Origin: a virus
Taxonomy: Duplodnaviria; Caudoviricetes
Length of the DNA: 36,063 nucleotides
IMG/VR virus record: IMGVR_UViG_3300035135_000885
Span: 1 to 36,063 of that record
Direction: 5' to 3' (one strand)
Below, in pieces: positions 8,765 to 9,167 of the stretch (its first letter is position 1; the number at the start of each line of letters is the position of its first letter). The translations under genes were made by a program, and so were the position numbers. The notes under the pieces are model-generated. The model saw only the letters and a list, made by a program, of their open reading frames with translations, was not told the origin of the DNA and made no database searches.

Positions 8765-8934
8765 TGGATACAGTAATGAAATACACATTCGCACCTCTTC
8801 AAGGATTTTGGTCTGGTTTATCAACAACGTTTGAAATCATTGGTTATAGTAGAGCAGCATCTCACCTAGCATCTCTAGGTTACAACGAAGAAGCAAAAAA
8901 TTGCATGATGGAAATAGCGAGGTTGAAAAAATGA
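8764..8934 (+). CDS. Small hypothetical protein, 56 aa (not in ORF track)
   Basis: [61 protein letters not shown] overlap upstream and ATGA overlap downstream. Confidence 0.8.
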
Positions 8935-9167
8935 CCGGTGATATCGCACAAATGGCTGCCTTTATTGGCGCAGGATTTGCATGTTTGGGTATGGGCCTTG
9001 CTGCTATTGGCGTTGGTAATATCATTGGATCATTCTTGTCGGCCGCGTTGGCTGTCCCAAGTAAATCAGCAGCACAAGTATCAAATATGTTCGTCGGCAT
9101 TGCCTTTGCCGAAGCTCTTGGAATCTTTTCCTTCCTAGTCGCACTGTTGTTGATGTTCGCAGTATGA
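8931..9167 (+). CDS. atpE: F0F1 ATP synthase subunit c homolog with altered polar loop
   Basis: 78 aa with two hydrophobic helices, Gly-rich [10 protein letters not shown], and [26 protein letters not shown] with carrier Glu61. Loop residues 41-43 are AVP rather than RNP/RQP. GAGG SD. Confidence 0.93.

Follow-up and report, generated by a model that had tools for sequence, protein, structure and literature searches.

What use does a T4-like phage have for the rotor subunit of its host's ATP synthase, when the cytoplasmic loop of that subunit has been rewritten? The question is raised by a gene for a c subunit (hereafter phage c) on a viral stretch of 36,063 nucleotides, which we analysed as a whole and call the window. 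The window is a fragment of a T4-like phage with genes for gp59, gp32, UvsX, the gp41 helicase, primase and ribonucleotide reductase. It represents about 17% of its phage genome according to CheckV, and no record of the phage collection reaches 60% identity to its helicase. The features of the locus are given in Table 1.

Table 1. Positions of the phage c gene, its altered and retained residues, and the surrounding cassette in the window.
Feature	Position	Strand	Remark
ATAAATA, candidate T4-type late promoter	8434..8440	+	Strand-biased motif
DUF1127 small protein, first cassette gene	8519..8764	+	81 aa; PF06568, 40.6 bits (cut-off 23.3)
ORF56, soluble phage protein, older cassette member	8764..8934	+	56 aa; not tied to the c gene
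Phage c, ATP synthase c subunit, cytoplasmic loop rewritten	8931..9167	+	78 aa
A41-V42-P43, replacing host R-N-P	9051..9059	+	Codons GCT GTC CCA
K45-S46, phage-specific gain (host A-A)	9063..9068	+	Sequence comparison
Glu61, proton-carrying carboxylate	9111..9113	+	Codon GAA; outer helix conserved as in host
One-helix membrane protein, constant partner of phage c	9164..9382	+	72 aa; start overlaps phage c stop (ATGA)
Intrinsic-terminator-like hairpin and T run, cassette end	9414..9445	+	9-pair stem 9414-9435

Phage c is an AtpE protein by descent and fold. It matches PF00137 with 38 bits (cut-off 24) and the AtpE equivalog NF005733 of NCBIfam with 88 bits (cut-off 85), and its AlphaFold2 model (pLDDT 86) is a hairpin of two helices, residues 2‒41 and 43‒77. 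The closest PDB structure by sequence and fold is the Paracoccus denitrificans c subunit (5DN6, TM 0.77). The V/A-type rotor subunit K, which is adaptor-coupled and lacks the RNP motif, was rejected as an identity, since the K-subunit profiles score phage c at 15.7‒17.9 bits against 88 bits for AtpE. Contigs in X2 and X3, DNA runs of two other studies, correspond to window positions 8894-9800 and 8918-9713 with zero differences, and the loop is therefore not an assembly error. Since two defining features of AtpE, the loop and the operon, are missing, we do not file phage c as a working c subunit.

The residue changes were defined by comparing 79 RNP-less family sequences with 65 host sequences; 33 of the 79 came from a protein search without genomic context, and their viral origin is presumed. 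Arg41 is present in all 65 hosts and in no family member. Asn42 is kept in only three family sequences, Asn34 is lost in 77, and I55V is found in 78. An earlier note on this DNA had read A-V-P at residues 41‒43 and an intact Glu61, and both are encoded as described. Its claim that the F1-coupling loop is lost holds for Arg41 and nearly always for Asn42, but not for the proline, which phage c and 73 of the 79 sequences retain. The positive charge of the loop has moved from two residues before this proline (host Arg41) to two residues after it (Lys45 of phage c): the latter position is Lys or Arg in 70 of the 73 RNP-less sequences with a proline and in none of the 65 hosts. Within residues 36‒52, every family sequence (79/79) has at least one Lys or Arg, and every host (65/65) has a single one, Arg41. 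The available part of PMC2172039 proposes that loop charges keep the c loop cytoplasmic while YidC inserts the protein. Ser46 is found in 37 of the 42 long-form sequences.

Outside the loop, Glu61 and 15 more host-invariant positions from Phe54 to Phe76 are kept in 79/79 sequences, and Gly20, Gly22, Gly27 and Gly29 in all 42 long forms, including the window copy. A derived short clade (n = 37) carries a deletion of 3‒5 residues, the five-residue deletion being the commonest form, and keeps Gly27 in 18 and Gly29 in 27 of its members. The entropy of positions 41‒43 is 0.00 in hosts versus 1.71 in long-form copies, and the loop entropy of the short clade is 0.00. As far as sequence comparison can tell, selection appears to preserve the proton site as well as insertion into the membrane and packing within the ring, and to drop the F1 contact.

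The altered loop divides phage copies from host copies. Among 82 IMG/VR stretches encoding relatives of phage c, 80 were kept, and R-N-P is absent in all of them. A scan that covered 15 of 64 parts gave 482 bacterial loci, and the best 80 (titles naming Rhodobacterales or unplaced alpha/proteobacteria) all carry the motif. The statement in the earlier note that Rhodobacteraceae c subunits read RNP is thus borne out: AVP is not the natural state of the host lineage, and loop loss is common to the phage copies. A host-type query against viral contigs returned 69 loci, nearly all on the same contigs and none a viral RNP copy, and R-N-P occurs in 0 of 140 stored viral loci. No c gene of two other proteobacterial types was found in viral contigs, by a search sensitive to close relatives only. 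Of 1206 matches in a protein search, 120 were listed; the top 28, and 35 in total, lack R-[NQ]-P, and 85 have it. We also took the best 80 of 399 loci from a metagenome collection that mixes origins: all 73 RNP copies adjoin atpB or atpF' in atp operons, and all seven RNP-less copies adjoin the partner gene with no operon. Phage c is 60‒74% identical to the listed bacterial and operon copies. It has no match in PHROG or BFVD, and no cultured carrier was found in 50,697 phage records. The carriers are uncultured T4-like phages from the sea that form a family, and sequence likeness makes Rhodobacterales their likely host group. In several small proteobacterial genomes (G027:C23:97435 and 32036; G035, G055, G019), two c-subunit matches lie 50‒65 kb apart on the same contig.

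The phage copies are maintained by selection. All 52 distinct viral genes have open frames of 73‒78 codons, with a dN/dS of 0.095 derived from 336 unsaturated of 1326 pairs, which are not independent and belong mostly to the short clade. Pairs with the window copy are near saturation (pS 0.61‒0.82, pN 0.13‒0.19). In the outer helix (residues 53‒78), dN/dS is 0.035, compared with 0.045 in 78 host genes. Since the family is under purifying selection, the random decay that the earlier note had allowed for does not describe these copies. With the loop columns removed, IQ-TREE split the 79 RNP-less sequences from the 65 hosts (support 92/76, not starred), and FastTree, also without the loop, divided the RNP-less family into groups of 73 and 6. 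A single capture from Rhodobacterales is likely. The short clade of 37 sequences is supported in IQ-TREE (99/96), and the 42 long forms, including that of the window, are not one clade, which fits substitution first and deletion later.

Phage c has a companion, which the earlier note missed. Of 81 phage c loci, 78 have the gene for a one-helix membrane protein directly after phage c, and the remaining three end at the c gene; conversely, phage c lies upstream in 74 of 76 partner loci, and the other two begin at the partner. The two genes are also paired where ORF56 does not adjoin them (loci L007‒L009 and 2 of the 7 RNP-less metagenome loci). Searches of 201 Rhodobacterales genomes gave no copy of the partner, and its 65 database relatives all lack a functional name. 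Its model shows one long helix and a small C-terminal part, and a PDB search with the partner fold gave no match at E ≤ 0.001. In the ESM Atlas, the partner and ORF56 match unnamed clusters only (best scores 0.86 and 0.93, respectively), and the top clusters are viral. The invariant residues Gly16, Phe20, Met23, Leu26, Cys30, Gly34, Phe35 and Val38 lie mostly on one face of the helix (100 degree period, permutation p 0.006), suggesting a binding surface. The partner has a dN/dS of 0.157 and a mean distance of 0.45, compared with 0.15 for phage c. The distances of phage c correspond to those of the partner with a rho of 0.53 and to those of ORF56 with a rho of 0.36, a difference that is not significant (CI -0.01 to 0.34). 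From the linkage and the single conserved face, we infer that the partner binds phage c. A complex prediction of four phage c subunits and one partner scored 0.00 in two runs, with an uncertain partner fold, and we take it as evidence neither for nor against binding. No fused protein was present among 7990 longer candidates, which is weak evidence. The partner was also considered as a copy of helix 2 of the c subunit and rejected (hhalign probability 3%). Since phage c is tied to the partner, testing it alone may miss its function.

The two genes end a compact cassette. The start codon of phage c overlaps the ORF56 stop (ATGA), and in relatives the cassette frames overlap or nearly abut. The upstream ATAAATA, which we take to be the T4-type late promoter consensus, occurs 12 times on the plus strand of the window and never on the minus strand. 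It is found in 17 of 54 distinct related upstream regions, which is the background level (0.32 per 800 nt); in 14 of these 17 regions the motif lies 486‒533 nt before the c gene, so the enrichment is in position and not in number. Late expression of the cassette is thus a candidate based on a motif in under a third of the loci. A sigma-70 scan gave three sites, which is chance level. At the cassette end, the predicted fold of 9395-9450 has an energy of -17.5 kcal/mol. An RNA-library contig of a relative (X19, 622 nt) is about 93% identical over 8711-9324, and exact 151-nt pieces from 8479-8486 occur in RNA libraries X15 and X16. Since this very stretch was used to find the runs, and DNA may be present in them, we did not count them as expression.

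The other cassette genes are less closely associated with phage c. DUF1127 was called in 52 of 81 phage c loci; proteins of this type regulate PhoR in Agrobacterium, as stated in the available part of PMC12648545. ORF56 adjoins phage c in 77 of the 81 loci, but of 374 ORF56 loci the best 80 include only 23 with phage c. A single marginal ORF56 match was obtained in 201 Rhodobacterales genomes. The ORF56 family is much larger, with 374 phage stretches, and DUF1127 stands alongside in 79 of the best 80 (L328-L407). ORF56 itself was rejected as a DUF1127 relative, as the two gave no alignment. A conserved 44-aa ORF (L011:6465-6599) with no NCBIfam match lies 3' of the partner in 34 of 81 loci and is absent from the window. 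The site of the cassette varies, lying beside a cupredoxin gene in 15 loci or after RegA and Hsp20 (L072:4289-4714; L059:1337-1807; L015:2036-2407). In seven loci, a 323-aa hydrophobic protein without a Pfam match (L003:2990-3961, minus strand) is encoded upstream.

The earlier note described a lone atpE with no other atp gene, and the searches agree on the second point. No other atp gene was found in the window by a Pfam scan covering 41 of 132 listed ORFs, by tblastn with the ORFs of one host Fo operon, or, for γ and ε, by profiles run across the whole window. Among five long carrier contigs, none has an a, α/β or b gene over the cut-off, and four of them have neither γ nor ε. One subunit-b match in carrier G005 fell below the cut-off and was set aside. 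Carrier G001, a record of 221 kb with a completeness rating of 100%, has a T4 gp23 capsid gene. Subunits a, b, α/β, γ and ε would therefore have to come from the host. However, the gene is not alone, being tied to the one-helix partner.

The simplest reading of phage c is that of an uncoupler. Arg41 of the E. coli c subunit is reportedly essential for F1 binding and coupling. In the available parts of the respective reports, the E. coli R41K mutant retains normal Fo conductance (PMC6063947), Gln42 cross-links to ε (PMC5990651), and subunit a is suggested to stay together with the c-ring without the stalk (PMC6377231); together with the Arg41 phenotype, these observations lead to this reading. 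We tentatively consider that rings containing phage c, beside the partner, dock on host subunit a but not on F1, so that protons leak and no ATP is made. A bolder form, which we regard as possible and hold with more reserve, is a counterfeit rotor, in which a headless ring and a phage gating helix would form a virus-controlled proton valve that hijacks the host Fo stator. The clean split between RNP copies in operons and RNP-less copies beside the partner, and an outer helix and Glu61 held as tightly as in hosts, would be consistent with uncoupling.

In such a mechanism, the cassette would be made late, and phage c would insert with normal topology, Lys/Arg45 taking over the positive loop charge of Arg41. 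Phage c would then oligomerize with newly made host c subunits or mostly with itself, with the partner helping or gating, and its unchanged outer helix would engage the host a and b subunits. Without Arg41, the γ-ε foot would slip or stay unbound, as in the E. coli Arg41 phenotype, and the proton motive force would fall. The benefit to the phage can only be guessed and may be superinfection exclusion, lysis timing or venting of a stalled respiratory chain. The block of reverse ATP hydrolysis proposed in the earlier note seems a weak motive, since the Paracoccus ATP synthase already hydrolyses ATP slowly, according to the available part of PMC8039183.

Several considerations argue against a leak. 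A lytic phage needs ATP, which a leak would cost. The great stability of completed c-rings and the shut-off of host synthesis by T4-like phages may leave few mixed rings, and little free subunit a, available. In Acetobacterium woodii, the natural mixed ring that contains c1, part of a working Na+ enzyme, tolerates an odd loop. The changes at Gly27 and Gly29 of the short clade, together with its shortened hairpin, may prevent mixing with host c. The conservation of the outer helix could also serve the partner and not subunit a.

Phage c and the partner might instead enter or bind host Fo and stop its rotation, which would lower ATP synthesis but leave the membrane tight and the proton motive force intact; this seems to us rather unlikely. 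Such a seal would presumably suit a replicating phage better than a leak, and a partner that is always beside phage c, with one invariant helix face, is what a wedge or clamp would look like. Steed and Fillingame reportedly found in 2014 that loop residues gate proton transport. However, a pure block would not need Glu61, which the whole family keeps, and the conductance of E. coli R41K in the available part of PMC6063947 stays normal. The low reverse hydrolysis of the Paracoccus enzyme (available part of PMC8039183) would also leave little ATP to save.

Phage c and the partner may instead form a membrane complex without host subunit a, which could serve as a gated channel, as a pore that times lysis or as a decoy, and in which the rewritten loop would receive the partner or some other phage protein; we judge this combination unlikely. 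It would explain why the two genes move as a unit even without an adjoining ORF56, and why the loop has new fixed features (Lys/Arg45, Ser46 and the invariant short-clade loop). Against it, at least 10 outer-helix residues are identical to the host while the partner diverges, suggesting contact with an unchanging host protein. Bacterial c-ring lumens are also said to be plugged by lipid, which speaks against a pore of this kind, whereas channel activity was reported for isolated human c-rings in the available part of PMC9433415.

Phage c could also remain coupled, as a minority subunit in host rings or by gripping F1 via Lys/Arg45, and thus be an auxiliary metabolic gene that tunes ring size or supplies extra rotor. 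Gly-to-Ala changes at positions 27 and 29 could alter c-ring size. The window copy passes the cut-off of the host equivalog NF005733, the naturally mixed ring of A. woodii includes c1 with its non-canonical loop, and the mini-Borg AtpK is read as a booster in the available part of its preprint (bioRxiv 2023.08.02.551345). Nevertheless, this explanation appears decidedly improbable. No viral RNP copy was found even with the host-type query, Arg41 is universal in hosts and absent from the family, and the commonest form, with five residues deleted, falls under the NF005733 cut-off (65.8 versus 85 bits for the short-form copy L011). A booster would also need no phage-only partner. Phage c resembles an auxiliary metabolic gene in being host-derived, located among viral genes and under purifying selection, but the host functional residues that such a gene keeps are lost (Arg41 in 79/79 and Asn34 in 77/79 sequences). 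A plain metabolic booster, which the earlier note had already held less likely, is thereby disfavoured. A decaying captured gene or host contamination, which the GC3 of phage c (0.42, compared with 0.22-0.30 in core phage genes) might suggest, can hardly be upheld and is refuted by the selection on 52/52 open frames, the T4-like neighbours, the identical sequence in two other studies and the metagenome split between RNP and partner.

Several known systems resemble phage c in part. Rhodobacterales AtpE (PF00137, NF005733; 5DN6) shares the two-helix hairpin, the glycine motif, Glu61 and the outer helix; phage c differs in the loss of Arg41, mostly of Asn42, and of Asn34, in I55V and the new Lys/Arg45, and in having a phage-only partner gene and no atp operon. 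The E. coli Arg41 loop mutants likewise lack Arg41 with the carboxylate intact, but they are laboratory point mutants, whereas phage c represents a natural, selected family with loop deletions and a partner. The c1 subunit of A. woodii (4BEM chain J) is a variant c in a mixed ring, with K-N-P in its first-hairpin loop and Lys two residues after the proline; unlike phage c, it is cellular, has four helices and is present in one copy per ring (one chain versus nine of c2). The Borg and mini-Borg AtpK is also a rotor-subunit gene that stands alone on a mobile element, in its own clade beside that of the host. However, it is archaeal A-type and read as aiding ATP production, and the available part of the preprint (bioRxiv 2023.08.02.551345) mentions neither a loop change nor a partner. 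Cyanobacterial AtpTheta-type inhibitors are small proteins that throttle F1Fo (available part of PMC12648545), but they are host-made regulators and not copies of a core subunit, and we saw no homology to phage c or the partner.

We found no description of a phage-encoded family of this kind in a literature search that covered subscription journals thinly. 'Complex V' is listed among genes on Pacific virome contigs, with the subunit not named in the available part of PMC4053976, and this entry may bear on priority. The family is real and conserved and apparently undescribed in print, and its role is probably inverted. Such genes are annotated as ATP synthase and metabolic booster, and their true role may be the reverse. 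If uncoupling is correct, a virus has turned a central component of the universal ATP machine on its own host, among phages of a bacterial group that is abundant in the sea. Should the bolder proton-valve form hold, the family would represent a host-takeover device of a new class, distributed among the marine T4-like phages that infect Rhodobacterales. The family also offers a natural series of loop variants, from single Arg loss through full rewriting to the five-residue deletion, for tests of F1 coupling and proton gating. For such tests the host group offers tractable models, Paracoccus among them.

Rfam and tRNA scans of the window gave no family and no tRNA. A GH19-like endolysin with a peptidoglycan-binding domain and an Rz-like spanin are encoded at 18849-20415, and the scans named no holin. 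A PLP aminotransferase of class I/II followed by a DUF454 membrane protein, neither with a PHROG, occupies 26090-27720. A 1254-aa protein at 11549-15313, in a strongly A-rich region, has a cytidylyltransferase-like N-terminus and a DUF5824 stretch, its remainder being unannotated. A large set of surface-sugar genes is spread over 9459-11533, 27757-30885 and 32838-35578 and comprises a sulfotransferase, a capsular synthesis protein, GT25, an epimerase, a GT17-like protein, UDP-glucose dehydrogenase, a cytidylyltransferase and a phosphomannomutase.
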